Part shown: in pieces, positions 4,270 to 22,479 of the stretch
Layout of the letters: every line of letters starts with the position of its first letter
Numbering within the stretch: position 1 is the stretch's first letter
Assembly: GCA_040752695.1 (NCBI GenBank)
Contig: JBFMGO010000083.1
Span: 1-27,582, forward strand
Length of the DNA: 27,582 bases
From: a bacterium
GTDB lineage: Bacteria; SZUA-182; DTGQ01
Direction: 5' to 3'
Made by a program: the position numbers and the translations under genes
The notes under the pieces: generated by a model
The model's database searches: none
The model's input: the letters and a program-made list of their open reading frames with translations, nothing else
What the model was told of the DNA's origin: nothing

Positions 4270-4617
4270 TCATTCGTTCTGCAGTGCCATAACCTTCTCC
4301 AATTGGGCGATGAGAAACGGAAGGTCTTCAATAACCGTTTCTCGAACCATATCCAGATTCACATCAAAATAACCGTGAATGAGCCGGTCGCGCATACCGA
4401 TCATCTTTTTCCACGCGATATCAGGGTGAGCTTCACGAAATGCCGGAGAAACACCTCTGGCGGCCTCTCCAACAATCTCCAGAAGACGAACAAGCGACAG
4501 GCTCAACATTCTTTGGGTGCTTAGATCCGCGCAAGAGTGGCTACTCCTATAGAGGGCGACTGCTTCTTGAGCAGCATCAAGAATGTGATGCAGGCGGACG
4601 GTATCATTTTTTATCAT
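4270..4617 (-). CDS. HepT-like HEPN ribonuclease toxin (DUF86)
   Basis: RLLEIVGEAA...WKKMIGMRDRLIHGYF with Rx4H and the adjacent Tyr; likely ATG at 4617 overlapping the antitoxin end. Confidence 0.9.
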   Translation of the reverse strand: MIKNDTVRLHHILDAAQEAVALYRSSHSCADLSTQRMLSLSLVRLLEIVGEAARGVSPAFREAHPDIAWKKMIGMRDRLIHGYFDVNLDMVRETVIEDLPFLIAQLEKVMALQNE

Positions 4618-4915
4618 ATTGCACCTGCGCGTTTGCCAGCACCTCATCCCGGAAATACCGGCTCAGATCTTCGGCGGTCCGAAGATCTGCCTTGCGTCCA
4701 AGCAAGGATGATAATTCTTCCTCCATATCGAATAATCGAAAGAAGCTTGGCACATGGCCTGGTTCAAATTCAACCAGGATATCCACGTCACTGTCCGGTT
4801 TAAAATCCTCCCGCAGGACGGAACCAAAGAGGGATAGTTTGCGGATGTGGTTGCGTTGACAAAAATCTGCAATTTTACCTTTGGGTATGCTGATCTTTGG
4901 ATTTGAATTGCGCAT
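4604..4915 (-). CDS. MntA-like minimal nucleotidyltransferase antitoxin
   Basis: LFGSVLREDFKPDSDVDILVEF (GS-x10-DxD); directly upstream of the HEPN gene; start taken at ATG 4915. Confidence 0.9.
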   Translation of the reverse strand: MRNSNPKISIPKGKIADFCQRNHIRKLSLFGSVLREDFKPDSDVDILVEFEPGHVPSFFRLFDMEEELSSLLGRKADLRTAEDLSRYFRDEVLANAQVQYDKK

Positions 4916-4981: not shown

Positions 4982-6442
4982 TTAGAGCCACAGTTGTTGT
5001 TTCAGTGCCATGGCTGCTGTTTTGGCAATCTCGATAAATGGCTGGGGATATACGGCAATGATAACGGTTATGACCAGGGAAATGCCGACGACCAGTTTCA
5101 TGAGTTGAGGGATCTCCAATTGACTGGCTGCGGATGCCTTTGCTTTTGCGGCTTCGTCTCCTCGCTCTACATAAATATAGCGCAGTACGTTGACATAATA
5201 GTAGACGGAGATCACGGAATTAATAATTCCGATAATAGCCAGCCAAGTCATTCCCCGGTTGATGGCCGAGGCGAAGAGGTCGAATTTTCCCCAAAAGCCG
5301 GGGGTTGGAGGTATTCCGATCATGGAGATAAGGAAAATGGCAATGGAAAATGACATAAGAGGGGATCTCTCTGATAATCCCGCCAGTTTTTTAATGTGAT
5401 GGTCTCCCTGCATGACTCCGGCGACCACGGCAAATGCTCCGATATTGACAATCCCATAAATCATAAGGTAAAAAATGGCAGCACTGAAAGCCATCTGGTC
5501 AGCAACGGCAAAAGCCATAAGGACATATCCGACATGGGCGATGCTGGAAAACCCGAGCATCCGTTTGATATTCGTTTGAGAAAGGGCTACGATATTGCCC
5601 ACACACATACTCATGACGGAGAGAATGATAAAGAGGATTCTCCACTGAGCGATCAAGGGGCTGAAGGCAGTGGTTACAAGACGGATCAAGGCGGCAAATC
5701 CGGCAACCTTCGGGGCTGTGGCCAGAAAGGAAGTAACCGGTGTCGGTGCTCCCTCGTAAGTATCGGGGACCCAAAAATGGAAAGGAACTGCCGCTATCTT
5801 GAAGGCAAACCCTGCCAGGATAAAAATTACCGACATCAAAAGGATAGGCTGGCTGTGGATATCAATGAGGCTCAGTTTCCAGGCAATGGCATCAAAGTTG
5901 GTAGCAGCCGTAAGCCCATAAATAAAAGTCATTCCATACAGCATAACCACCGAAGCCAGCATACCAAGCATCAGATACTTATAGGCAGCCTCATTCGAGC
6001 GGGCATCTTCCTTATCGATCCCGGACAGGATGTAAAGGGGAATACTCGTCAATTGCAGACTCAGGAAGAAACTGATGAAATTATCGGATGAAACCATGAA
6101 CATCATTCCGACCACCGAGAACAGAATCAGGCAGTAATACTCTCCCTTGCGGGTGATGGAGGAATTGAAATAATCCACCGAGAGCAGAATGACCAGGCCG
6201 GTACTCAAAAGCAGGATGATTTTTATGACGTGACCAAAAGAGTCGATGGTGAACAGGCCATTGAAGGACACCGGATTAAGAGAGAAGATTCGTACGAGTT
6301 GTATGACGGCCATGACGGGACCGGCCACTGCGGCTATGCCGAGGATCCTTTTCGATTTTTCCTGCATGAACAGATCTGCGGTCAGGATGATCGTGCCGGT
6401 GAGGAAGATGATAATTTCTGGCAAAAGGAGATTTAGATGCAT
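4982..6442 (-). CDS. nuoN: NADH-quinone oxidoreductase subunit N
   Basis: SNEAAYKY, FKIAAVPFHFWVPDTYEGAPTPV, KRMLGFSSIAH, GIPPTPGFWGKF; start ATG 6442 preceded by GGAG. Confidence 0.93.
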   Translation of the reverse strand: MHLNLLLPEIIIFLTGTIILTADLFMQEKSKRILGIAAVAGPVMAVIQLVRIFSLNPVSFNGLFTIDSFGHVIKIILLLSTGLVILLSVDYFNSSITRKGEYYCLILFSVVGMMFMVSSDNFISFFLSLQLTSIPLYILSGIDKEDARSNEAAYKYLMLGMLASVVMLYGMTFIYGLTAATNFDAIAWKLSLIDIHSQPILLMSVIFILAGFAFKIAAVPFHFWVPDTYEGAPTPVTSFLATAPKVAGFAALIRLVTTAFSPLIAQWRILFIILSVMSMCVGNIVALSQTNIKRMLGFSSIAHVGYVLMAFAVADQMAFSAAIFYLMIYGIVNIGAFAVVAGVMQGDHHIKKLAGLSERSPLMSFSIAIFLISMIGIPPTPGFWGKFDLFASAINRGMTWLAIIGIINSVISVYYYVNVLRYIYVERGDEAAKAKASAASQLEIPQLMKLVVGISLVITVIIAVYPQPFIEIAKTAAMALKQQLWL

Positions 6443-6518
6443 ATTTTTGCTTCTCCGCTCAGAAAAAGGGTCTTCTGTGTGCTGGGATTTTGATCGTTTT
6501 TTAAGACCATTCGCTGTA

Positions 6519-8015
6519 TCATGGCAATTGAATCCTCGCAATGAATTGGGCTGCATAGTTATGAAACGTAGACAGCAGCAATTTCGGGTAAAAACCCAGG
6601 AATATGATGATAACTGAGAGGGAAATAAGAGAAAAAATCAGCTTTTTATTGTAGGCTGCTACCTGGAGAGTACCCGCCTGATCAGATGATGGCTGATGAT
6701 GACCCAGACCACTGTCACTTGAAGTCCCCCGAAATGAGATGGCCGGTAACATCGAGAAAATATATCCTGCCATGATTACGGTGCCGGTCATGGCTATGAT
6801 CCCGAAAATAACCTGGCTCTGGAACGCACCGGACAGGATATAGAATTCGGCGATGAAACTGCTCATGCCCGGAAGCCCGAAAGAAGCCAGGAGGAGAAGC
6901 CAGAACAGCATGGCACCTGTCGGAATGTAGTGAACGATCATGCGTAGTTTCCTGATTTCAATCGTACCCAGGGTATCTTGAATCATGCTGATGGCCATGA
7001 AGATGGCACCGGCAATGATGCCATGATTAAACATATGGAAGATGGATCCTTCAATGCCTATTTTATTCAAGGCTCCGACACCCAGCATAATCAGACCCAT
7101 ATGCCCCAGGCTGGAATAGGCGAACATCCGTTTGAGGTCCGTCTGCGCCGCAGCACACAGGTTGGCATAGATGATGGTAGTGACCGCCAGGATGCAGACA
7201 AGCCAACTGAAGGTTGCGCTTCCCTGCGGAACCAGACTGTATCCCACCCGGATAAAACCGTATACGCCCATTTTGGCCACTAATCCTGAGAGCAGCACCG
7301 TAATCGAATTGGGTGCCTCGACATAAGCATCCGGCTGCCAGCTATGGAAGGGAAAAAGAGGTACCTTGATGGCCAGGCCAATGAGAAGGAAGATGAAGAT
7401 GACCCTCTGGAATCCGATCGAAAAATTGGCTGTAAGCAGCGCAGGGATACTGAAGGTGTGCATATCGGCCCGAAAGTAGATGGCAAGGATGGCAATCAAC
7501 ATGACCAGGCTGCCCAGGAGAGTATACATCAGAAATTTGATGCTCGCCTTTTGCCGGTTCGGACCGCCCCAGATGCCGATGAGGAAATAGCCGGGAATCA
7601 GAACAACCTCCCAGAATACATAAAAGAGGATTAGATCAAGAGACAGAAACACCCCCAACAGCCCGCATTCCATAAGCAGAAGGCAGGAGTAGAATGCCCT
7701 CAGCCGGTACTCCTCCTGATGCATGGCCATAACCACCAGAAAGCTCAAAAGGCTTACTAAAAGCACCAGGCTTAAGTTGAGCCCATCCACTCCGAGGAAA
7801 TAGGACACTCCAAGCCCCTTGACCCAGATTACATTTTCCACAAACTGGTAATCCTGGTTGAGTTGAAAATGAAAAAGCAGATATATGGAAAGTATAAGGG
7901 GAATAGCCGTGCTTACCAAGGCGATTTTCTTCGCAGAACTCTCTTTGCCCGGAAGAAAAAAAATCGCGATTGCTCCGAGTATCGGTGTCCATATTATTAA
8001 CGACAAGAGAGGCAA
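6519..8015 (-). CDS. nuoM: NADH-quinone oxidoreductase subunit M
   Basis: LGVDGL, FYVFWEVVLIP, IKVPLFPFHSW, AKMGVYG, LPGMSSFIAEF; TTG start after AGGAG; 498 aa, without NuoL's long C-terminal extension. Confidence 0.93.
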   Translation of the reverse strand: MPLLSLIIWTPILGAIAIFFLPGKESSAKKIALVSTAIPLILSIYLLFHFQLNQDYQFVENVIWVKGLGVSYFLGVDGLNLSLVLLVSLLSFLVVMAMHQEEYRLRAFYSCLLLMECGLLGVFLSLDLILFYVFWEVVLIPGYFLIGIWGGPNRQKASIKFLMYTLLGSLVMLIAILAIYFRADMHTFSIPALLTANFSIGFQRVIFIFLLIGLAIKVPLFPFHSWQPDAYVEAPNSITVLLSGLVAKMGVYGFIRVGYSLVPQGSATFSWLVCILAVTTIIYANLCAAAQTDLKRMFAYSSLGHMGLIMLGVGALNKIGIEGSIFHMFNHGIIAGAIFMAISMIQDTLGTIEIRKLRMIVHYIPTGAMLFWLLLLASFGLPGMSSFIAEFYILSGAFQSQVIFGIIAMTGTVIMAGYIFSMLPAISFRGTSSDSGLGHHQPSSDQAGTLQVAAYNKKLIFSLISLSVIIIFLGFYPKLLLSTFHNYAAQFIARIQLP

Positions 8016-8025
8016 TTTTTTTCTC

Positions 8026-8334
8026 CTACCATTTCAGGAAATCTATTTGGTCAATATTAATGGTGTTTCTTAAACGATAGAGATTGAGAATAATGGCCAG
8101 CCCTACGCCGATTTCTCCTGCTCCTACGGCAATAGCAAATAAGGAAAAGATCTGCCCGGTCAGGTCCGATCCGCCAACATAGGCTGAAAAGGCAACCAGG
8201 TTAATATTTACGGCATTCAACATGAGCTCTATGGATACGAGAATCATAATCGAATTCCTTCTGGCCAGTACTCCATAGACGCCAACACAAAAAAGCACTG
8301 CGGAAAAGGTCAGGTAGTAGGAGAGCGATATCAT
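8026..8334 (-). CDS. nuoK: NADH-quinone oxidoreductase subunit K
   Basis: SIELMLNAVNINLVAF...GQIF...AGEIGVGLA. Confidence 0.95.
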   Translation of the reverse strand: MISLSYYLTFSAVLFCVGVYGVLARRNSIMILVSIELMLNAVNINLVAFSAYVGGSDLTGQIFSLFAIAVGAGEIGVGLAIILNLYRLRNTINIDQIDFLKW

Positions 8335-8852
8335 GGTTCTTCTTTCTCCTCATCAGGTGTATTCTCCTCTTTGCCTCCGATAACGACGGCCCCGATCAGG
8401 GCTACCAGCAAGATTATGGACACAATCTCGAAGGGGAGAACATAATGAACGAACATAACCTTGCCAATCGCTTCCGGCGCCATGATGATTGACGGCTGAT
8501 GGGCCTGCACCGGCCACTTGGTGGTTATGATGCCGAACATCAACAAACCGAAAAGAACAACCGAAGTAATGAAGGCAGGCACTCTTTTAGGGTGATCGAG
8601 CGCCCGGACCACACCTTTGGCCGGTTTGGTAAGCATCAGAGCGAACAGCAGCATGATGGACACCCCGCCTGCATAGATCAATACCTGCACCCCTGCCATG
8701 AATTCGGCATACAAAAGAATGTAGATGCCGGCTATGCCCAGTAAGGCCAGAACATGGGAATAAATACTGCGGGCGATATTATCCGCTGAAACCATGACGA
8801 TTCCGGCGACAATAGTAATAATGGCTAAGATAATGAAGATAAAAAGTTGCAT
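8331..8852 (-). CDS. nuoJ: NADH-quinone oxidoreductase subunit J
   Basis: AEFMAGVQVLIYAGGVSIMLLFALML, YVLPFEIVSIILLVALIGA; ATG 8852 with GGGGAAG upstream. Confidence 0.93.
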   Translation of the reverse strand: MQLFIFIILAIITIVAGIVMVSADNIARSIYSHVLALLGIAGIYILLYAEFMAGVQVLIYAGGVSIMLLFALMLTKPAKGVVRALDHPKRVPAFITSVVLFGLLMFGIITTKWPVQAHQPSIIMAPEAIGKVMFVHYVLPFEIVSIILLVALIGAVVIGGKEENTPDEEKEEP

Positions 8853-8882
8853 AACTTCCCCTGGAGCTTGATCATGAGGCAA

Positions 8883-8905
8883 TCAAAGGGCCCCACGACC
8901 CTTGA
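8883..8905 (-). other. Intercistronic hairpin between nuoI and nuoJ
   Basis: mRNA UCAAGGGUC-GUGG-GGCCCUUUGA immediately after the nuoI stop. Confidence 0.45.
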
Positions 8906-8907
8906 GC

Positions 8908-9321
8908 TCAAACGTCCACCATAATCTTATCTATGGTATAAATCAAGTCATTTTTATCGTACGTAGCCAATTCATACTCATGCGTCATGATCAAGGCACC
9001 GAAAGGACATGCCTCGACACACAAACCGCAATACATGCACCTTGCGACATCTATGGTGTATTCCTTGGGAAACTTCTTTTTTTCTCCTTTTTCCGGATCG
9101 CCCGCTCCTGCAACAATCTGAATGATATTATCCGGACATGCCCTGGCACAGACTCCGCAGGCAACGCATTTCAATTCACCGGTTTCCTTGCTGCGAACCA
9201 GCCCGACCCGCCCGCGGAAACGCTCCTTCAGGACCGGTTTTTCCTTTGGATACTGCTGGGTAATCGGCTTGTCGAAAAGGTGGCTTATGGTAAGCCTCAT
9301 CCCGGTTAAAATCCCTTTCAT
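8908..9321 (-). CDS. nuoI: NADH-quinone oxidoreductase subunit I (2x[4Fe-4S])
   Basis: TQQYP...RFRG, CVACGVCARACP and CMYCGLCVEACP. Confidence 0.95.
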   Translation of the reverse strand: MKGILTGMRLTISHLFDKPITQQYPKEKPVLKERFRGRVGLVRSKETGELKCVACGVCARACPDNIIQIVAGAGDPEKGEKKKFPKEYTIDVARCMYCGLCVEACPFGALIMTHEYELATYDKNDLIYTIDKIMVDV

Positions 9322-9364
9322 GGTTTCATTACTCCTTATCCTTGCTCCTTATCCTTTTGCCTTT

Positions 9365-10336
9365 TTAATATATCTTCAGCATGATTAACAACCCGGTAAT
9401 GACAACGTTCACCAAAGCTGCCGGCAGCAGAATCTTCCATCCCAGGGACATCAACTGGTCAGCCCGCACCCTTGGCAGGGTAGACCGGGTCCAAAACAGG
9501 ATGAATATCAGGCTGAAGGTTTTGATGAAAAACCAGACCAGCCCCGGCAGCACCGGACCGTACCATCCTCCCAGAAACATGGTCGTGCAAATGGAGCACA
9601 GGGTAAAAAGACCGATGTATTCGGCCATGAGCAGGAGGGCAAACCGCATACCGGAATACTCGACATGGAAACCGGCGACCAGTTCCGACTCTGCTTCCGG
9701 CAGGTCGAAGGGAACCCGGCAAATCTCGGCATTTAACGCGATAAAGAAAATAATAAAAGCCAGCGGCTGCTTGAAGATGTACCAGTTGAAGATATTCCAG
9801 GTGCAGCCCTGAGCATTGGCGATATTGTTTAAATTCATGGTCCCGGCCATCATGATGACCGCCAGAGCGGATAATCCCATGGGCAGTTCGTAGCTGACAA
9901 ACTGACCGATGGAGCGCATGCAGCCTAAGAGGGAGTATTTATTATGAGATGACCAGCCAGCCATCATATACCCGACGGTGGATATGGATAAAACAGCCAT
10001 CACGTAGAAAATTCCCATATTCAAATTTGCTGCTTTTATGGTGGAAGTGAACGGAATGGCAGCCATGACCATGAAGGCAGGAATAAAAACGACAAATGGC
10101 GCGGCGGTGTAAATAATGTAATCGACACCGCTCGGTATGCTCATCTCCTTGACGACCATCTTCATGGCGTCGGCAATGGGCTGAAGCAGGCCGTGATAGC
10201 CGGTCCTCATCGGCCCCAGGCGGTACTGGAAATGGGCCAGCGCCTTTCTTTCCAGCCACATGGAAGAAAGCAGAATGATGAGCAGTCCAACAAGCATGCC
10301 AATGGCTACGAGAAACTGTATTCCGATGCTGACCAT
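9365..10336 (-). CDS. nuoH: NADH-quinone oxidoreductase subunit H
   Basis: ERKALAHFQYRLGP, GLLQPIADAMK, RVPFDLPEAESELVAGFHVEYSG, LPRVRADQ. Confidence 0.96.
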   Translation of the reverse strand: MVSIGIQFLVAIGMLVGLLIILLSSMWLERKALAHFQYRLGPMRTGYHGLLQPIADAMKMVVKEMSIPSGVDYIIYTAAPFVVFIPAFMVMAAIPFTSTIKAANLNMGIFYVMAVLSISTVGYMMAGWSSHNKYSLLGCMRSIGQFVSYELPMGLSALAVIMMAGTMNLNNIANAQGCTWNIFNWYIFKQPLAFIIFFIALNAEICRVPFDLPEAESELVAGFHVEYSGMRFALLLMAEYIGLFTLCSICTTMFLGGWYGPVLPGLVWFFIKTFSLIFILFWTRSTLPRVRADQLMSLGWKILLPAALVNVVITGLLIMLKIY

Positions 10337-11431
10337 TTAGCGATCTACCTCCCCCATGCAAATATCCACCGTGCTGAAGGTAGCAATTACATCGGCTACC
10401 AGCACACCAGGCAGGACATATTGCAATATCTGCAGGTTTACAAAGGCAGGACTGCGGAATTTGATCCGGTAAGGGGTCTTATCCCCGGCGCCGATAATGT
10501 ACACTCCCTGCTCTCCTACCGAAGTCTCGGTTCGAAAGTATCCTTCCCCGTCAATCTTGATCACCTTGGGAACCTTGGCACAAATCTCTCCATCCGGCAT
10601 CCTCTCGGCCGCCTGACGGACAATCTTGTTTGATTCCCTCATTTCCTGTAAACGTAAGTTATACCGGTCAAGATTATCCCCCTTTGTCCCTACCGGAACG
10701 GAAAATTCAAAATCCTCGTAAGAGGAGTAGGGTTCGGCCTTGCGGATATCGTACTCGATCCCGGTGCTTCGCAGGATAGGTCCGGTGATTCCCAGATTTA
10801 CAGCCAACTCCTTTGACAAAACGGAGATTCCTTTCATTCTGGATAGGAATATCTCGTTTCCTGACAGAAGTGCTTCATATTCATCGACGATCTTGGGAAG
10901 CCGTTGGGTGAAAGCCACTATCCGATCGAGAATCCCCTCAGGCAGGTCCTCTTTTACGCCTCCGATTCGAAAATAGTTAAAGGTAAGCCTGGCCCCGGAG
11001 ATTTCCTCCATGAAGTCCAAAATGGTCTCCCGGTCCTTAAAGGAATAAAAGAAGGGAGTCAACGCGCCAAGGTCCATGCCCAGAGCGCCAAAGAAGATCA
11101 TGTGATTTTGCATTCTTGATAATTCAGCCATCATGACGCGGATGTACTGGGCTCTTTTGGGAACCTCGATACCGAGCAGGCTCTCGACAGCCAGACAATA
11201 GGTCAGTTCATTCTGGAATGCATTGGCATAGTGTAACCGATCGGTAAGGGCGATGATTTGCGGATAGGTTCGAGTCTCGGCTAATTTTTCAATCCCACGA
11301 TGTAAATAGCCGAGATGAGGCTGGCACATTACCACTCGCTCCCCATCAAGCTCCAGCATCATGCGGAAGACACCGTGTGTGCTGGGATGCTGGGGACCCA
11401 TGTTTAAAAACTGCGTTGTCTTAATTGCCAC
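10337..11431 (-). CDS. nuoD: NADH-quinone oxidoreductase subunit D
   Basis: NMGPQHPSTHGVFR, GYLHRGIEK, DRLHY, terminal GEVDR; no NiFe-binding CxxC pairs; GTG start. Confidence 0.95.
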   Translation of the reverse strand: MAIKTTQFLNMGPQHPSTHGVFRMMLELDGERVVMCQPHLGYLHRGIEKLAETRTYPQIIALTDRLHYANAFQNELTYCLAVESLLGIEVPKRAQYIRVMMAELSRMQNHMIFFGALGMDLGALTPFFYSFKDRETILDFMEEISGARLTFNYFRIGGVKEDLPEGILDRIVAFTQRLPKIVDEYEALLSGNEIFLSRMKGISVLSKELAVNLGITGPILRSTGIEYDIRKAEPYSSYEDFEFSVPVGTKGDNLDRYNLRLQEMRESNKIVRQAAERMPDGEICAKVPKVIKIDGEGYFRTETSVGEQGVYIIGAGDKTPYRIKFRSPAFVNLQILQYVLPGVLVADVIATFSTVDICMGEVDR

Positions 11432-11480
11432 GTGCTCTATAACCTCAATAAAAGCAGTAATAGTGATTATGGAAAGTAAT

Positions 11481-11996
11481 TTATGATTGATTAGACAACA
11501 GGAAATCCTTTCTTAATGGAAAACCTTCAAAGTCCTCTCTGAGCAGTAAATGCCTCGGATCAGGATGTCCCGTGAAGGTGATTCCCAGCATCTCTGCTGT
11601 TTCCCGCTCATGCCAGTCCGCTCCCTTGAAAACAGGATAAAGGGAGGGAACTTTCGGTTTTTCCCGGGGGATTTTGACCTTGACCGTGATCTTATGCTTT
11701 CTGGTTATTGAACAAAGGTGATAAACTATTTCCAGGCATTCTCCTCTGTCAACACCGCACAGGCAGCGGGGATGATTGAAAGCCAGTTCCGATTCTTTGA
11801 GGAACGTGCACACCTCAAGGAGATTTTCGGCAGATACCCAGATGGCCAGTTCCTTGTTGATCACCTGGGATTGTTGAATCTTCTGGCCGAAAGCTTTGGC
11901 CAGGGCCGCCTCTATTTCCTCAGGGCTCAATGGCTTTGCGGAAAAAGCATCCGCCTTGTCGTCAGGTGTCGGGCTTGTTTTGATCTTACCCTTCAA
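11481..11996 (-). CDS. nuoC: NADH-quinone oxidoreductase subunit C
   Basis: [27 protein letters not shown]...[11 protein letters not shown] start overlaps the nuoB stop. Confidence 0.93.
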
Positions 11997-12538
11997 CTTC
12001 TTATCCCCCAGGCAGAGTTGAAAGCGCTTTTGGCGTTATTCATGATTTTTTCCTGCAATTTGACTACCCCGTTCATCAAAGCCTCCGGCCTCGGCGGACA
12101 GCCAGGGACATAAACGTCAATCGGCAGAACCTTGTCTATGCCGGGCAGGACATTGTAAGAATTATAAAACGGACCTCCACTGTTGGCACAGCTTCCCAGG
12201 GAAATGACCCACTTGGGCTCGGGCATCATCCCATAGAGCCTTTTGACTACCGGCAGCATTTTATAGGTGACTGTTCCGGCTACAATCATCAGATCCGCCT
12301 GCTTCGGTGTAGCCCTCGGCAGCACTCCGCTTCTTTCATTGAAATCGTAAGTGGCTGAACCCGCAGCCAGCATTTCAATGGCGCATCAGGCCGTGCCAAA
12401 GGTAAGCATAAATAAGGATGATTTTCTGGCCCATCCGCGAACAAGCTCCAGGGTGCCGGTGATGATATTAAAATCCTGCCCTTCTGAATACGCGGTCTTA
12501 TCAAAAGTAATGATAGGCTGATCCTGCTGTTGATCCAT
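11993..12538 (-). CDS. nuoB: NADH-quinone oxidoreductase subunit B, predicted selenoprotein (TGA = Sec51)
   Basis: ATG 12538 with AAGGA upstream reads [12 protein letters not shown]...[18 protein letters not shown][TGA]CAIEMLAAG in frame with the 11993..12373 ORF. TGA at 12386-12388 replaces the first Cys of the canonical ACCAIEM. The other ligands, GSCANSGG and VPGCPPRPE, are intact. 181 aa. Confidence 0.9.
12337..12380 (-). promoter_or_regulatory. Putative bacterial SECIS element in nuoB
   Basis: mRNA after UGA-UGCGC: CAUUGAAAU-GC-UGGCUG-[CGGGUU]-CAGCCA-CUUACG-AUUUCAAUG. 9-bp lower stem, 6-bp upper stem, G-containing apical loop 22 nt after the UGA. Confidence 0.75.
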
Positions 12539-12664
12539 GCTCTTTATCCTTATTCTCTTTATCAGTTTTGTCCGTATGCTTCTCTTGTTCGAGCTTTTCT
12601 CTCTTAAGTGTTGCGGTTTTCTCTCTTTACGTTCTTCTTTGCCCGATCCTGAATTTTTCTTAGC

Positions 12665-13033
12665 TTAAACCCACCTTAAGACGTTCTTTTTCCAGGCGTA
12701 AACTAAACCCAGAGCTATGATGGCAATAAAGCTGAACATTTCGAAAAAAGCTACCCAGCCCATGTCTCGAAATACAACTGCCCATGGATACATGAATACC
12801 GTTTCGACATCGAAGAGTACAAAGAGAAGGGCGAAAACATAATACCGAATGTTAAGTTGCCCCCAGGGTTCTCCAATAGGGACAAGTCCGCATTCATAGG
12901 GAAATGATTTTTCTTTTGAGGGACGGTGAGGGGCAAGGATCCTGCTGACCGTAAGAACTATCATTACATATAAAAGACCGACCAGCGCAAAGATCGCTAT
13001 ATAGGAATACTCTTGCAGGAATTGCTCTACCAT
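12665..13033 (-). CDS. nuoA: NADH-quinone oxidoreductase subunit A
   Basis: KSFPYECG, RYYVFALLFVLFDVETVFMYPWA, YAWKKNVLRW. Confidence 0.96.
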   Translation of the reverse strand: MVEQFLQEYSYIAIFALVGLLYVMIVLTVSRILAPHRPSKEKSFPYECGLVPIGEPWGQLNIRYYVFALLFVLFDVETVFMYPWAVVFRDMGWVAFFEMFSFIAIIALGLVYAWKKNVLRWV

Positions 13034-13192: not shown

Positions 13193-13426
13193 TCGAAAAA
13201 TCAAACGAAGTTTTAACATAATGAGATTATTGCCATCCAAAATATTGGAAACGAAAAAAATATCATGTAAATCAAATAATTAGTCAGATAAAAAAGTGAA
13301 AAAAAATCCGCTACCTGCGTGATTTTTGGATAGTGAATTTTTTAAGTTTGATATAATAAAACAGTATTTGAAATGTCGAGATCATAGCATTATAATCGGA
13401 TGTTTTTCTAAAAAATCGTTACTCCA

Positions 13427-13443: not shown

Positions 13444-13748
13444 TGATGGAGGGAGAAATGCGATAGATACAAACGGGTAAGAATGGGTAAAAATACGGCT
13501 TTTCATCTATTGCCTTCGTTGCCGGGTGAGAATGTGCCTGTTTGTGACTGGATCTTTTCCATGAATATTAATATAATATATATATATCTTATTTAATTTT
13601 GAATAGTGGTATAGTGTTGCCTCTTGTCTGGCGAAACTCAGCATCTTAAGGGCACACGAGGCCCGCTTTGGTAGGCAGTGCTTCGACAGGCACCGGAACA
13701 TTATATTTTAAAATACCTCACTACAGGCAGAGAGAAGGAGGTTAGAGC

Positions 13749-16700
13749 GTGTGTAAGGGTAAAAAAATTCCTCTCGTAACGATTGGGGTCAGTTTCCTTG
13801 TTTTTTTCTGTTTTCCCCTCCGGGTTTACTCATTCGATGGATCTTTGCCGATCTATAAATCCGATACGTGTCGAGAATGCCATTGTAATCCTGAACTTCC
13901 TTCACCCCTTCCACCGCAGATAAGGAAAGATCATGGCAATCATCCATCAGGCAGAAAGTGGGCCGATACGTCCTGCGCGGTTTCAGGGTGCCACAGCAGT
14001 GGCTCTTGTACTGATAAATTCAGGCTGGATGGATATGAACACAACGATTCAGAAGTATCTTTCTGGCAATTGAAACCTCTCCCTTTTCATGAGCGAAAAT
14101 TTGATTGCATCTCCTGTCACTCATCTCATCATGAGAACAATGGAGAAGACCCTCTTGTTTTGAATGGCAATCCGAGCCACTTACTCTATGCTGATTTTCA
14201 AAATGATAATCCCGCTTTTTGCGAGTACTGCCATGGCGGTTGTAAGGCATCCCCAAAGGGCGCACTATCTCACCTGGCAGCGAATAATGGGAAACATTAC
14301 AAAACGATAGATAATTCCCCTATCGTACGGACAACTATTACTGCCGCAGGCGAAAAGGTTGTACGCAGATGCGGTGGGTGTATGTTCTGCCACTTTATTC
14401 ATTTGGATCAGGATGACCCGCGGGATGTACCTAAAACATCATGGCCGGAGGATAAGGCGGGGGAGACCTTTATCCAAGCGGACATCAATGCCTTGATGCG
14501 GGTGCCGCCCCGGCCGCTCGAGTGGGGAAATCAGGGTACCCCATCGGGAAGTAATCCGATAGGCCGCTATGAGGCCTTATGCTATGGGTGTCACGGCTAT
14601 CCAGCCATAGTTGGCGGTTATGGCGAGAATGGAAGCTTGCTGAAACCCGAAGGGATGAACTTCAGTCATCGTTTTGCCTGCAAGCCTTCAAGTGAGAATA
14701 CTATTACCAATACCGGTGTGGGAGCGGGTAAATTCCCATTGGCGGATGGCAAGCCCGGTGCACCTGGCGGTATCATGGATGACTACGGTACGGCGGCCGG
14801 GCAAATCTATTGTGGTACGTGCCATGATGTGCACAATAATCAGAAGCCTCCCTATTTGTATCAATTAAGTCCCTATGATGTTGCCTCACCCTATAAGTCT
14901 GATGATGGAGGCAGTGTCGTGACTTCCCAGGCTGCAAGAGATGGTTTTTGCGAACAGTGCCATTGCTCCGTAGATAATCCTGATCCAATGCATCGAGGCG
15001 CAACCCACCCAGTCGGAAAAAGGGTTCTTCCTCTTCCTCCCAAAACGGTAGAAAAATTTACGGATATCTTCTTTTGTGGAGGGAGCGGACTTCCTTATGG
15101 CATTACGTATTCTCAGAGCGGCGGCAAGGGTGGGGTGATCTGTTTGACATGCCATAATGTACACGCGGCATCAACCTCCTGGAATGGGACAGTGCCTGGT
15201 GAGACCACATCTGCCGGCAGGCCGGGAACTCATGGCCGTCTGCTCGTCAAGGACAATAATGCATCGCCTCCTGGCGGTAACCTCTGTCAGGGCTGCCATA
15301 ATCGATTCTCGGTTGACGGATCACCGCTCTATGGCGGGCACTTGTGTACTCAGCGCGATACCGGAGAGGAAATCCAGGTTTGTGCTGCCTGCCACAGGCC
15401 GCACGGAGCGAAAGGGAATAAAATCTGGGCGCGTGATTTATCCCCGGCAGGCACGGAAATCAAGACAAAAGACCTGTGCGTGAGTTGTCACCATCGGCCG
15501 AACAACGAGTTTTGCAAAATCTCTTCCGGCTTAACGTTCAGGGATAAGGGAGGGACACCCCAATGGGATGGCATACCGAGTAAGGATAGCAGTTATAATA
15601 ATAAAAATGGAAATGTTTTTGAATTGCAAAGAGGTGAAACTGACCGCAGCGCTGATCATGTCATGGGAGAAAAAGCAAGGAGGGGTGTTGAAGGTACTTC
15701 GATGACTGCCGAAGTGCCTCATGAACTCCGTCACTTCAGTGAGGATGAGGGCTTTTATTGTGGATCGTGCCATGATCCACACAAACAGCCAAATGGAAAG
15801 ATAGATGGAAACGGTGATTACCTGCGGGTTATGTATGGCGTGGATGCAGGGACTACTCACAACCGCAGGAAATTTTGCAGGCAGTGCCACCCCAGCAAAG
15901 GGGCCAGGATTAGGATCCATGATGAGGGCTCAGATCCACAATGTGAAGCATGCCATAGGCCCCACGATGGGTATAAATATGAAAATGATGACGATCCGAG
16001 AGAAAGACTCATCTTTGTGGATTATCTCCCTTTAACAGAGCCTTTCCAATTCCCGTATACTCCTGAGCTTTTTGACCTTTCCTCACAGACAAGTGTCTTT
16101 TACAAATCCACTCATTGTACATCGTGTCATTTAAGCTACAAAGATCCTGACGGCAGGTCTCTATGGCCGTGTGCTCCAAAACTTAGCAAGACTCGCGGCC
16201 ATCATCCCATGGGCCGCCCCTGGCAGAAAACCTCTTGCGCAGTTTCCGGGTGCCATACGGTTAATTTGCCTGCCGCCCTTGGTCTTTTCAGATTAGACGG
16301 TTACGCTAGAACCGCGGATGGTCAGGTTCAAGACCCGCTTCCAGACAGCGATCCGAGAAAGATCTTCAGTTGCATCTCCTGTCATGCAGCTCATACCGAT
16401 GCGGTCCCGGGCAATGAAAAGTTCTTGCTTTATGATAATTTTAAAGATGATGCTACTGCCTATTGTGAACATTGCCATACTTCCGCATCAGAGAGTACGG
16501 CAAGAAGCAGATTCACACCGCATGCTAAAACGAAAGAGGTTCTCAGAGGGAAGCATTTACAGAGCAAGTCAACAAGTCCCAATGGGCGAGGGGGTTGTAT
16601 GTTCTGTCATTTCACTCACCTGAACGATACAAACGACCTTGGCGGAAGATCCAGGGCTCTTCCTGAAAAGGCCAGAGTGAGTCAAGTCCCGACACAGATC

Positions 16701-17723
16701 AAGGCCCTGATGCGAGTCCCGGCTAAGCGCCTGGACTGGGACACTCAAGGAATGAACATCACCCTCATTCCTGATTCTCTGGACCGCTATGAGGCGCTGT
16801 GCTACGGGTGTCATGGAGATCCTTCCATAGTCAATAATTATGGAGAGGGCGGTTCTTTATTGAATCCATCGGAAAAGAATTTTCATAGTCATCGATTCGC
16901 CTGCAAGCCTGAAAAAGGTAGCAATACTCTTTTTAATCTCGGCAGGCGTATAGATCAATTCCCAATAGGTGATGGTCAGCCTGGTGCACCTGGCGGAGTA
17001 AGGGATGATTACGGTACGGTGGCAGGGCAGATCTACTGCGGTACGTGCCACGATGTGCACGACAATGGCAAGCCGCCTTATTTGTACCGTCTGAGTGCGG
17101 ATGATATGGCTTCGCCATATAAGTCTGATGATACAGGCATTACAGTGTCATCCCAGGCCGAAAGGGAGGGTTTTTGCGAGCAGTGCCATTGTACTCCAGA
17201 TAATCCTGACCCAATGGGGGAAGGTGTAACTCACCCTGTTGGGGAAAAAGTAATCCCCAATCCTCCCACCCTGTCACCATTTCCTGAAACATTTTATGGC
17301 GGAGGAAGCGGATCGGAGAGGGGCATTACCTATGGAAATTTCAAAAATGGCAACCGGCAAGGGGTAATATGCCTGACCTGTCACAATGTCCATGCAGCCA
17401 CGACTCCCTGGAGCGGGACTGTCGGCTCCACAACGGCTGAGCCGAACCTTCATGGTTATTTGCTCGTTGAGGATAATTATCAGGGACCTCCGGGCAGTAA
17501 TATGTGCCTGAGCTGCCATGACAGCGAGCAGCGCTGCAATGGAGACGCTAACCAGGATGGCGGGGTGACTCCTGCTGATGCTTTACTGATTTTCAAGTGC
17601 TACCTTGATATCGGCATCTGTCCTTCACAGTGCGCAGATGTGAATAAAGATGGCGGGGTGACTCCTGCTGATGCTTTATGCATTTTTAAACGCTACCTTG
17701 GATTACCCAGTTGTCTGGATTAG
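13749..17723 (+). CDS. Secreted giant multiheme c-type cytochrome (25 heme motifs) with C-terminal dockerin-like domain
   Basis: GTG start after AAGGAGG; N-terminal signal peptide (KGKK plus hydrophobic stretch); 23 CxxCH and 2 CAVSGCH (CX4CH) counted by eye; C-terminal GDANQDGGVTPADAL...ADVNKDGGVTPADAL. Confidence 0.92.
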   Translation: MCKGKKIPLVTIGVSFLVFFCFPLRVYSFDGSLPIYKSDTCRECHCNPELPSPLPPQIRKDHGNHPSGRKWADTSCAVSGCHSSGSCTDKFRLDGYEHNDSEVSFWQLKPLPFHERKFDCISCHSSHHENNGEDPLVLNGNPSHLLYADFQNDNPAFCEYCHGGCKASPKGALSHLAANNGKHYKTIDNSPIVRTTITAAGEKVVRRCGGCMFCHFIHLDQDDPRDVPKTSWPEDKAGETFIQADINALMRVPPRPLEWGNQGTPSGSNPIGRYEALCYGCHGYPAIVGGYGENGSLLKPEGMNFSHRFACKPSSENTITNTGVGAGKFPLADGKPGAPGGIMDDYGTAAGQIYCGTCHDVHNNQKPPYLYQLSPYDVASPYKSDDGGSVVTSQAARDGFCEQCHCSVDNPDPMHRGATHPVGKRVLPLPPKTVEKFTDIFFCGGSGLPYGITYSQSGGKGGVICLTCHNVHAASTSWNGTVPGETTSAGRPGTHGRLLVKDNNASPPGGNLCQGCHNRFSVDGSPLYGGHLCTQRDTGEEIQVCAACHRPHGAKGNKIWARDLSPAGTEIKTKDLCVSCHHRPNNEFCKISSGLTFRDKGGTPQWDGIPSKDSSYNNKNGNVFELQRGETDRSADHVMGEKARRGVEGTSMTAEVPHELRHFSEDEGFYCGSCHDPHKQPNGKIDGNGDYLRVMYGVDAGTTHNRRKFCRQCHPSKGARIRIHDEGSDPQCEACHRPHDGYKYENDDDPRERLIFVDYLPLTEPFQFPYTPELFDLSSQTSVFYKSTHCTSCHLSYKDPDGRSLWPCAPKLSKTRGHHPMGRPWQKTSCAVSGCHTVNLPAALGLFRLDGYARTADGQVQDPLPDSDPRKIFSCISCHAAHTDAVPGNEKFLLYDNFKDDATAYCEHCHTSASESTARSRFTPHAKTKEVLRGKHLQSKSTSPNGRGGCMFCHFTHLNDTNDLGGRSRALPEKARVSQVPTQIKALMRVPAKRLDWDTQGMNITLIPDSLDRYEALCYGCHGDPSIVNNYGEGGSLLNPSEKNFHSHRFACKPEKGSNTLFNLGRRIDQFPIGDGQPGAPGGVRDDYGTVAGQIYCGTCHDVHDNGKPPYLYRLSADDMASPYKSDDTGITVSSQAEREGFCEQCHCTPDNPDPMGEGVTHPVGEKVIPNPPTLSPFPETFYGGGSGSERGITYGNFKNGNRQGVICLTCHNVHAATTPWSGTVGSTTAEPNLHGYLLVEDNYQGPPGSNMCLSCHDSEQRCNGDANQDGGVTPADALLIFKCYLDIGICPSQCADVNKDGGVTPADALCIFKRYLGLPSCLD
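13941..17519 (+). repeat. Intragenic duplication of a 9-heme module (about 13941-15299 and 16203-17519)
   Basis: Both copies run from HPxGRxWxxTSCAVSGCH through GGCMFCHF, RYEALCYGCHG, DDYGTxAGQIYCGTCHDVH, GFCEQCHC and GVICLTCHNVHAA to PPGxNxCxxCH. Confidence 0.9.
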
Positions 17724-20315: not shown

Positions 20316-21377
20316 TTAGTTCTCAACACTTTTCTTTATGGTCTGCCAGAGGTCATTTTCGACCATGTGAGCATTTGGCAGGAAATCGACATACAGGGAA
20401 TGACGGTCCTGGTTCTCTCTATCGAAAGGAACAATCATACAGAGCCTGGTTCCTGAGCGGATGATCGATTGATGAGTGATTCCGGTAACGATACCTTCGA
20501 GTGGAGACAAAATATTTCCCGAGTCGAAGCTCATGGGGTCCATGATATCTCCGATTTTTTTCCCCTGATGAACTATCTGGCCAAGGTGGATGTCCGGCTT
20601 GAAGATGCCGCCGCTTGGGCTTCGAATCCATTCCTCGTTGGATTTGAGAAGGATCTGAAATTTGGGAATGAGGGCCACTCCTTTAATCATACCCAGAACC
20701 TTCATGACGTTTTCACAGGCACATAAGCCAACCTTGACGTTGTTGCTGCTGATCAGTCCTGCTGCTCCGATCTCGATGGTCAGACACCGGATGCCGATTT
20801 TGGCTGCCTCCACTTGCAGCATACCATTGACTGCCGGTCCCTGCCAGATGACATTAATGCCGGTGGAATTCATGAATTGGTTATGGGCTTCATCCATGCC
20901 GGATTCCGAGCGCAGACGGATATGGGGAATCATCTCGTCCGGGAATTCGGCTGAGTGCAGGTCGATGATATAGTCAGCATGAGGGACGATGTTTTCAAAG
21001 AAAAAATGGGCTACCCGCTCGGTCAGCGTTCCATTCCGGTCTCCGGGGAATACCCGGTTCATATCCTGCCGGTCGATAGGATCCCAGCGATTGCCTGCAT
21101 TAAAGCCCATCGGGTTGACTACGGGGACTGCCAGAACAGTGCCGCACAGTTTTTGTGGGTTGATTTTATCAACCAGTTTTCTGATAACTTCAACTCCAAC
21201 CACCTCGTTTCCGTGGACCGCTGCGTTGAGCAAAAGGGTTGGGCCAGGGCGGCATCCATAGATACCGAAAAAACCAAGGAAAATTTCCTGCCGGTAGGCG
21301 TTTTCGGCGATAATGAATCGCCGGTACTCTTTGGTCCCGGGTTTAGGAGTGAAGAGTGAGTCCTGCTTTGACACCAT
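20316..21377 (-). CDS. Succinylglutamate desuccinylase/aspartoacylase (AstE/AspA, M14-like) family zinc deacylase
   Basis: AAVHGNE, DMNRVFPG, IDLHS, TIEIG; C-terminal barrel-sandwich (RSPSGG...SPLEGIV). Confidence 0.88.
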   Translation of the reverse strand: MVSKQDSLFTPKPGTKEYRRFIIAENAYRQEIFLGFFGIYGCRPGPTLLLNAAVHGNEVVGVEVIRKLVDKINPQKLCGTVLAVPVVNPMGFNAGNRWDPIDRQDMNRVFPGDRNGTLTERVAHFFFENIVPHADYIIDLHSAEFPDEMIPHIRLRSESGMDEAHNQFMNSTGINVIWQGPAVNGMLQVEAAKIGIRCLTIEIGAAGLISSNNVKVGLCACENVMKVLGMIKGVALIPKFQILLKSNEEWIRSPSGGIFKPDIHLGQIVHQGKKIGDIMDPMSFDSGNILSPLEGIVTGITHQSIIRSGTRLCMIVPFDRENQDRHSLYVDFLPNAHMVENDLWQTIKKSVEN

Positions 21378-22428
21378 ACGATTCTCTTTGCTTTTGAACC
21401 TTTTGATTTATAGTACCCAAAAAGTTATTTCTCGATTCAGGGGTATTTTCCAGAAACTGTACTTCGAGTTTTGACCGCAGTTCCTCCATAGACAGAGAGT
21501 TGGCTATGATCAAGCCGGATATGAATTCCGGAGCGAGGCCATACTGCTGCTTAAGGTAGTGTATTGCACCATACGCATCAACACTGCTGCTGGCAGCCAA
21601 GGCAAAAAGCGAGATGTCATTCATGATAGATGGACAACGCAAAACCATCTCGGTTTCCCTCTGAAATATTCCATCCGCCACTTCCATGATCAGAAATTCA
21701 CAGCCGCTCAGGCTGAAGTATCTTTTAAATACCTTGAAAATAGATTCCAGATCCGTCAAAGAGCATTGGTATGTTGCAGGATACCCGATGTCCATAAAGT
21801 CCAGAACGGCATGGGCACCGTAAGCCTTCATGCAAAGGATGTCTTTCATCCGGGAAGTCCCGGTGAGTTTTCCCCCGCCGACCCTGAATCCGTTGTTAGT
21901 GAGAATATCGATGATTCGTCCGGCAGTGAGCGTTTTTCCGCAATCCATATCTGATCCGAAAACAGCGATAATTTTCAAGGCAGACCGCTTTTCCTGCGTG
22001 GTTATTCCAAAGTGCGCGGTATTCAATTTTTTCCCCTGATCATCGACTGCATGGCCGAGGTAAATCAATTTCGTGGGTGCCTTGGCCACCGTGTTCCGAC
22101 TCAGTGCCTCCCCGGCGATTCCTCCGACATTCAGGAGGTCAAACTCTGCGCCCTGCACCAGCTTGCGGGGCACTCCTCCATGAAATTCCCGTGTGGAGTA
22201 CCTTCTGCCCAGAACGACGGCTACCACGTCTCCGATCTGCAAGGTCATCTCCCTGCCTTCCGGCTCCTCAAACCTGGTATGCTGGCCAAGCTCGGAGACT
22301 TCTCCGATGACCACATCCCCACTTTCCGGGTTGCAGCCAAAGCCTGCATCTGTTTCTTGAGGTGAGGAAAGGGAATAGACTCTCCGTGTCGAAGAGGAAC
22401 GGATGTTTATATGATACCGTATGGACAT
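21343..22428 (-). CDS. DUF1611-like P-loop protein
   Basis: VFGSDMDCGKT P-loop variant, KLTGT, VLDFMDIGYPATY, MEVADGIFQRET. Start uncertain (ATG 22428 or TTG 22470). Confidence 0.7.
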   Translation of the reverse strand: MSIRYHINIRSSSTRRVYSLSSPQETDAGFGCNPESGDVVIGEVSELGQHTRFEEPEGREMTLQIGDVVAVVLGRRYSTREFHGGVPRKLVQGAEFDLLNVGGIAGEALSRNTVAKAPTKLIYLGHAVDDQGKKLNTAHFGITTQEKRSALKIIAVFGSDMDCGKTLTAGRIIDILTNNGFRVGGGKLTGTSRMKDILCMKAYGAHAVLDFMDIGYPATYQCSLTDLESIFKVFKRYFSLSGCEFLIMEVADGIFQRETEMVLRCPSIMNDISLFALAASSSVDAYGAIHYLKQQYGLAPEFISGLIIANSLSMEELRSKLEVQFLENTPESRNNFLGTINQKVQKQRESYGVKAGLTLHS

Positions 22429-22479
22429 AAAGCAGTTTTCCGACTGTTGTGCAATCGCCTTTTCGTACAATCGTTTTAA

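Follow-up and report, generated by a model that had tools for sequence, protein, structure and literature searches.

How giant cytochromes that carry neither a lipid nor a membrane anchor are retained at the cell is an open question in the field, and it is raised again by P0001, a gene in a 27,582-nt stretch of bacterial DNA (hereafter the window). In a preliminary description of the window, the C-terminus of the encoded cytochrome was taken for a dockerin, through which the protein might dock onto a cohesin-bearing surface scaffold and build a modular extracellular electron conduit. Here we ask whether this region is a dockerin, what it might bind, and what its attachment to a cytochrome might achieve. 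The coordinates of the features discussed are collected in Table 1.

P0001 encodes a protein of 1324 amino acids and is divergent from nuoA; its neighbours in the window are the divergent nuo operon and convergent genes for a phosphorylase and PEP carboxykinase, and a Pfam match to cohesin was absent from all neighbour genes in the window. The product has the features of an exported multiheme cytochrome c, namely a predicted signal peptide, 25 heme sites and 40 further histidines, enough to supply distal ligands, and sequence prediction finds in it neither a lipobox nor a membrane helix beyond the signal peptide. Note that the number of 25 hemes given in the preliminary description holds as a motif count if two CX4CH motifs are taken together with 23 CXXCH motifs; the homologues P0017 and P0019 have a canonical CXXCH in place of a CX4CH site, in a comparison of 22 proteins, of which only 5 gave the site with the search pattern used. 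The heme features are conserved across 33 aligned relatives, and the doubled CXXCH domain (PF09699/TIGR01905) scores over the cut-off. In a structure model of the heme core together with the dockerin the pLDDT was 39, and the heme fold could not be predicted.

Elsewhere in the window, the nuo operon (4982-13033, minus strand) comprises nuoA, B, C, D, H, I, J and K with only two Mrp-type membrane subunits; neither nuoEFG nor a third antiporter subunit lies in that stretch, and nuoA and nuoB are separated by a gap of ~290 nt (12373-12665). A gene for a HepT-like ribonuclease (4270-4647, minus strand) is located between leuA and the nuo operon, and a 375-aa ORF (21343-22470, minus strand) that has no significant Pfam match (DUF1611, E 0.044) adjoins an AstE/AspA-family gene.

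Table 1. Positions of P0001, its parts and the related operon loci (window positions unless a contig is named).
Feature	Position	Strand	Basis
Sigma-70-like promoter candidate, 11/12 matches	13368..13396	+	weak: 5 sites vs 3.0 +/- 2.0 in shuffles
Ribosome-binding site AAGGAGG, 7 nt before the GTG start	13735..13741	+	read from sequence
P0001, exported multiheme cytochrome c with C-terminal dockerin	13749..17723	+	ORF, profile and motif evidence
Predicted Sec signal peptide, residues 1-28	13749..13832	+	cleavage site deduced from the N-termini of homologues
Heme module 1, residues 29-521, 9 CXXCH + 1 CX4CH	13833..15311	+	paralogue alignment and tree
Heme module 2, residues 522-1257, 14 CXXCH + 1 CX4CH	15312..17519	+	paralogue alignment and tree
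Joint of five residues from last heme motif to dockerin, no flexible linker	17520..17534	+	sequence
Cys-rich type I-like dockerin, residues 1263-1324, three predicted disulfides, and stop codon	17535..17723	+	Pfam, model, covariation
Dockerin repeat 1: Ca-binding loop (D1266, N1268, D1270, D1277) and helix 1	17541..17594	+	model and sequence
30-nt stretch, copy 1, probable intragenic conversion or duplication	17556..17585	+	sequence comparison
Dockerin repeat 2: Ca-binding loop (D1297, N1299, D1301, D1308) and last helix	17634..17687	+	model and sequence
30-nt stretch, copy 2, identical to copy 1	17649..17678	+	sequence comparison
Parent operon loci	G000:C50:188-24360 (L113, L114); G001:C88 (L115, L116); G002:C22 (L117, L118)

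Several lines of evidence identify the C-terminal region as a dockerin. The Pfam model Dockerin_1 matches residues 1265-1312 with 28.3 bits against a cut-off of 22.9, the PDB sequences that match the region are dockerins (best E 6.5e-5), and the two Ca-loop/helix repeats start 31 residues apart, at residues 1265 and 1296, as had been described. Both duplicated loops have Asp or Asn at positions 1, 3, 5 and 12, the hallmark of a type I dockerin. Moreover, an AlphaFold model of the domain, built from 30 dockerins of the genome, reached a pLDDT of 90.8 with helices at 18-28 and 49-59, and its top Foldseek rows are cellulosomal dockerins at TM 0.6-0.7 (2ccl_B at TM 0.70/0.75, rmsd 1.3); no row reached E <= 0.001, as expected for a short domain (67 residues). 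An isolated EF-hand pair, the outcome named beforehand as the one that would speak against a dockerin, was rejected, as calmodulin-like folds appeared only at TM 0.2-0.3 and the model is dockerin-like rather than like an EF-hand protein. The extra flanking cysteines are six in number, at residues 1263, 1284, 1291, 1295, 1311 and 1322. Among 101 related dockerins, a set whose sequences are kin rather than independent and may include repeated loci, covariation couples 1263 with 1295 (p 6e-8) and 1311 with 1322 (p 1.5e-4); these two pairs, and by elimination 1284-1291, are the predicted disulfides.

The 30-nt identity between the two repeats is exact and cannot be extended in either direction; the residues after the shared block differ (Leu-Ile versus Cys-Ile). 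It is also the longest internal identity among the 41 dockerins of the genome that score above 80 bits, and because the next longest is 15 nt and the median 7, it exceeds the chance level of the family. At the protein level 15 of 19 residues are identical, the highest value in the genome, and both repeats carry a Gly at a position where Gly does not rank among the top three residues. This outlier identity, combined with the shared uncommon Gly, suggests that intragenic conversion or duplication probably carried the sequence of one repeat over to the other. Dual binding of type I dockerins rests on the symmetry of the repeats, according to the accessible part of PMC12484212. The near-identity of the repeats emphasised in the preliminary description is thus real, but it is peculiar to the P0001 copy and, judging from the 41 dockerins compared, is not needed by the family.

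The source genome (G000; 6.05 Mb, 96.6% complete) turns out to be rich in possible partners. A profile search gave 40 cohesin matches, 39 of them over the cut-off, along with 42 dockerin matches, so that a lack of cohesins, which would have counted against docking, is not what the genome presents. With iterated profiles, 54 ORFs contain 47 dockerins and 44 cohesins; 26 of the 47 dockerins lie directly behind a cohesin (within 8 residues), and 32 are C-terminal. The dockerins form one class, with 54-67% identity to the P0001 copy among the 30 aligned. The cohesin profile matches solved cohesins (5NRM, 4UMS and 2XDH) at E 2e-9, and conserved glycines of the genome's cohesins occupy alignment positions where the solved cohesin has an Asp and a Leu/Phe. 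The strands that carry these positions form the cohesin binding face, and glycines there may accommodate the dockerin's Pro/Phe face.

The cohesins and dockerins of this system are found on exported non-cellulase proteins, which include C25, C1 and M12 peptidases, VWA, beta-helix, CotH and alpha-2-macroglobulin proteins and adhesins, and for 53 cohesin/dockerin ORFs the best five families contained no catalytic family of glycoside hydrolases. There were no SLH matches in the source genome (a control matched in 4 of 14) and no CBM3 matches in the three genomes of the genus, that is, the source genome and its congeners G001 and G002 (control matched in 1 of 14); a GH48 search was likewise empty in all three, although here no control matched either. 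With at most three cohesins per protein among the 54 ORFs, no primary scaffoldin with many tandem cohesins was seen in the source genome. Sequence prediction gave a clear C-terminal membrane helix for none of its cohesin proteins. Candidate anchors are cohesin-only proteins with either a lipoprotein-like Cys (C20:4859-6550) or, on contigs C21, C30 and C72, aromatic low-complexity tails. The host is a diderm, having Omp85 and secretins (seven in the genome). Within its small phylum, 16 of the 20 genomes searched contain cohesin, and the expansion is seen in the genus (40, 22 and 25 cohesins) and in G007, a genome of the same order (10); the two congeners have 21 and 33 dockerins. The Cys-rich dockerin class, together with cohesin, occurs in Desulfobacterales too, in proteins of Desulfosudis oleivorans, Desulfococcaceae and Desulfosudaceae.

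Some side observations concern this system. In P0387 (from the cultured D. oleivorans), P0325, P0326, P0337 and P0385 the cohesin is adjacent, and the dockerin frequently fails to reach the Pfam cut-off. One contig of G007 (C48:1-19500) carries a cluster of several dockerin and cohesin genes that belong to another, more canonical class. Exported proteins of the source genome (C21:56284-57318, C30:34156-37887, C72:3139-9444 and 11 further ORFs) have uncharged, low-complexity tails of Ser, Gly, Asn and Pro with aromatic residues, often ending in Tyr, Trp or Phe, and from their sequences such tails are a possible lineage-wide signal for sorting or matrix binding. Weak cohesins were seen in C66:30832-31527 and C46:34768-38118, whose short Cys-Phe-Ile tail near the C-terminus had no NCBIfam match and is a possible sorting signal.

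Taken together, sequence and model indicate that the giant cytochrome P0001 does end in a dockerin and that its genome encodes a non-cellulosomal cohesin-dockerin system. We think it reasonably probable that the C-terminal 62 residues are a likely Ca-dependent binder of any cohesin of the genome, and that this tethers the cytochrome at the end of a general-purpose network, as a cap. Such a general tether would follow the principle of a cellulosome without being one. P0001 would be exported by Sec and its hemes then attached; outside the cytoplasm the dockerin would form its disulfides and load calcium, after which it would dock, in a Ca-dependent manner and in either orientation, on a cohesin. 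Cohesin-dockerin tandems that have no linker probably cannot bind themselves and would chain in trans, and P0001, as a dockerin-only protein, would cap a chain. Anchoring might be provided by the cohesin-only candidates described above, and the network could lie at the surface or in the periplasm. By virtue of the tag, the cytochrome would stay close to the cell as well as to a tagged CO dehydrogenase and a tagged GEGP diheme protein; the tag would not itself carry electrons because the scaffold proteins are without hemes.

The part of the preliminary description that goes further, a dedicated cellulosome-style electron conduit, fared less well than the dockerin and the cohesins. According to this reading, which we consider unlikely, cohesins order P0001 with other redox proteins into an extracellular conduit, for instance from CO dehydrogenase through the diheme protein to the 25-heme cytochrome. 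In keeping with it, three heme-c proteins of the source genome carry the dockerin class (P0001, the diheme protein and a twin-arginine CO dehydrogenase with one CXXCH), fusions of the latter two kinds recur in other sequences (P0077, L147 and P0083), a mere five residues separate the dockerin of P0001 from its last heme motif, and 45 multiheme ORFs occur in the genome besides its secretins. Furthermore, in all three genomes of the genus, which as congeners are not independent, the operon that contains the parents of P0001 (see below) lies head-to-head with a gene for a beta-propeller protein of 2000-2300 aa ending in cohesin-cohesin-dockerin; in the source genome this gene is split by an assembly gap. 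That operon encodes 14-CXXCH cytochromes, NHL propellers, a GAF sigma-54 activator and a large propeller/Ig protein. Against these points, the cytochromes of this conserved operon are themselves without a dockerin, none of the cohesin ORFs of the source genome has a heme motif, and the dockerin class is carried by ~45 ORFs that are mostly non-redox; because this one class is shared, it cannot sort redox from non-redox cargo. Only 1 of the 45 multiheme ORFs (at least 4 CXXCH) is tagged, when a rough base rate (26 of 414 long exported-looking ORFs) leads one to expect ~1.7 among the 27 exported-looking multihemes, and there is no enrichment of dockerin among multiheme ORFs. None of 48 homologues of P0001 is tagged, the proteins offer no more than three cohesins each, and tethering alone gives no heme-to-heme contact. 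It is equally doubtful, in our estimation, that there is a 'redox-osome', in which a self-chaining, disulfide-stabilised cohesin-dockerin network would clip heme-tagged CO dehydrogenase, diheme protein and 25-heme cytochrome onto shared scaffolds, electrons from CO oxidation would travel via the docked cytochromes to partner cells or external acceptors, and fusing on the plug would suffice to add a wire.

Of the other two redox fusions we note the details here. The GEGP diheme protein (C64:6896-8311, L054; NF041762 over the cut-off) recurs with its dockerin as L147 and P0077, and the CO dehydrogenase (C47:20670-22958, L048), whose dockerin is C-terminal, recurs as P0083.

A different possibility, quite improbable in our judgement, is that a mobile dockerin landed on a spare paralogue with little effect, or serves only as a cap stabilised by calcium and disulfides. 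The distribution of the fusion is what such a passenger would lead one to expect, since the dockerin is absent from all 48 homologues of P0001 and from 149 other representatives (the best 150 of 3441), and the rate of tagging fits the base rate. The same fusion was not found among 119 other dockerin-profile matches (120 of 149 listed), in three metagenome loci or at 39 cytochrome loci of relatives. Among 117 shorter proteins, none covers more than 53% of the junction region, and the 90 new ones have no CXXCH; at the dockerin loci of seven relatives (74 of 77, ~500 aa upstream) none has at least 3 CXXCH and one has two. Across all sets searched, then, the fusion was observed in one genome only. 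Proteins of relatives repeat the same heme module to reach 49-60 CXXCH over 2600-3270 aa (L091:2034-11831, L077:5643-13490 and L084:5589-13451), and several of these concatemers end in proline-rich tails, with no dockerin.

The composition of the gene bears on the passenger as well. Residues 17-519 match G000:C50:4336-6615 at 56% identity, heme module 1 corresponding to hemes 6-15 of that paralogue, and residues 520-1261 match G000:C50:7481-9826 at 66% identity, heme module 2 being a whole mature copy of this second paralogue that begins at its predicted signal-cleavage site. Each half groups with its own parent (support 100 and 99 in a 20-row midpoint-rooted tree), and the dockerin begins five residues past the last heme motif, where the second parent ends. 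As judged from these alignments, P0001 is a chimera of two paralogous cytochromes and a dockerin tag. Also compatible with a passenger is the setting of the gene, which is without the propeller genes that flank its parents; nuoA has other neighbours in G001. No clean empty site was found in G001 or G002 around nuoA and the phosphorylase genes because the nuoA of G002 and both phosphorylase genes are near contig ends or beside transposase-like ORFs. The passenger is harder to reconcile with junctions that fall exactly on domain borders and with the state of the dockerin, which retains each of the eight Ca-loop ligands, each of the six cysteines and the Pro, Leu and Phe conserved in its two helices, even as synonymous sites diverged (pS 0.59-0.79 against four paralogous dockerins). 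Relative to paralogues, a comparison that spans time before the fusion too and cannot date it, dN/dS is ~0.2 for both heme modules with dS >1, which argues that the duplication is not recent and that the parts were under purifying selection, and <=0.25 for the dockerin; selection for the fusion itself cannot be inferred from these values because the fusion is known from one genome only.

It is very unlikely, we believe, that the dockerin serves as a cell-to-cell or matrix tether that binds cohesins of other cells or species and places the cytochrome between partners. The occurrence of the dockerin class with cohesin in Desulfobacterales would fit such a role, and similar roles have been suggested for ANME-SRB consortia in the accessible parts of PMC5244752 and PMC10553843; however, the genome has 44 cohesins of its own. 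Hardly credible is an assembly chimera with a false join at the dockerin or between the two heme modules. Although the fusion is seen in one genome only, the window contains no N, the frame is open through both junctions, DNA identity between each part and other places in the genome is only 66-77%, and GC is uniform at 0.49-0.50.

Returning to the general tether, its significance lies in the role of cohesin and dockerin outside cellulosomes, which is largely obscure and for which help in the adhesion of multiheme cytochromes was proposed in the part of PMC5244752 available to us. The direct fusion in P0001 makes this idea testable with two small expressible domains, and designer scaffolds could gain a new orthogonal pair from the Pro/Phe-faced dockerin class with its predicted stabilising disulfides; the case carries limited weight because the fusion comes from one genome and cohesin binding is putative.

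The closest structural parallels are the clostridial type I dockerins (PDB 2CCL, 3UL4 and 1DAQ), which share with the P0001 dockerin the duplicated Ca loop-helix motif, the predicted fold and the symmetric helices, whereas six cysteines and recognition positions occupied by Pro-Ala, not Ser/Thr, set the P0001 copy apart. At the level of the system, the genome's cohesins match the solved cohesins cited above, yet unlike clostridial cellulosomes it combines cytochrome cargo with few cohesins per protein, no CBM3 or SLH and a diderm host. A cellulosome-like complex of another non-clostridial uncultured bacterium, Ca. Stygibacter (Cloacimonadota), likewise has proteins that combine a signal peptide with a C-terminal dockerin, a C25 peptidase among them, but it has a tandem-cohesin/CBM scaffoldin of 3755 aa and hydrolase cargo, and no redox cargo is reported in the accessible part of its description (PMC8542988).

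With doubled-CXXCH cytochromes P0001 shares the domain of that name. Its likeness to nanowires of the OmcE/OmcS type is at the level of motifs only, with weak profile matches to PDB 7TFS (which we take to be OmcE) and 9YUQ (E 7.5e-4 and 8e-3), no whole-domain match and a heme core modelled at the low pLDDT given above. No description of a natural dockerin-cytochrome fusion was found among the titles and abstract beginnings searched, mostly outside subscription journals. Genes of Geobacter join dockerin to cupredoxin/laccase domains, according to the accessible part of PMC6199725. ANME archaea and their partner sulfate reducers likewise have many cohesin/dockerin proteins and large multiheme cytochromes (PMC9012536, PMC5244752 and PMC10553843, as far as their accessible parts go), and one of these sources speculates that the modules serve 'MHC adhesion' (PMC5244752). 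The dockerin cargo named there consists of ABC-transporter binding proteins and S-layer domains, in contrast to the direct cytochrome fusion of P0001; in the accessible part of the S4 Data of PMC9012536, 20 places with 'cytochrome' and 14 with 'heme' include no c-type cytochrome domain. The large ANME multiheme cytochromes A/B/C are similar to P0001 in that a giant cytochrome is fused to a non-heme positioning domain, there S-layer or pectin-lyase-like (PMC9012536, accessible part); P0001 differs from them in having no membrane helix, in belonging, as far as searched, to an unrelated family, and in using a dockerin as its positioning domain.
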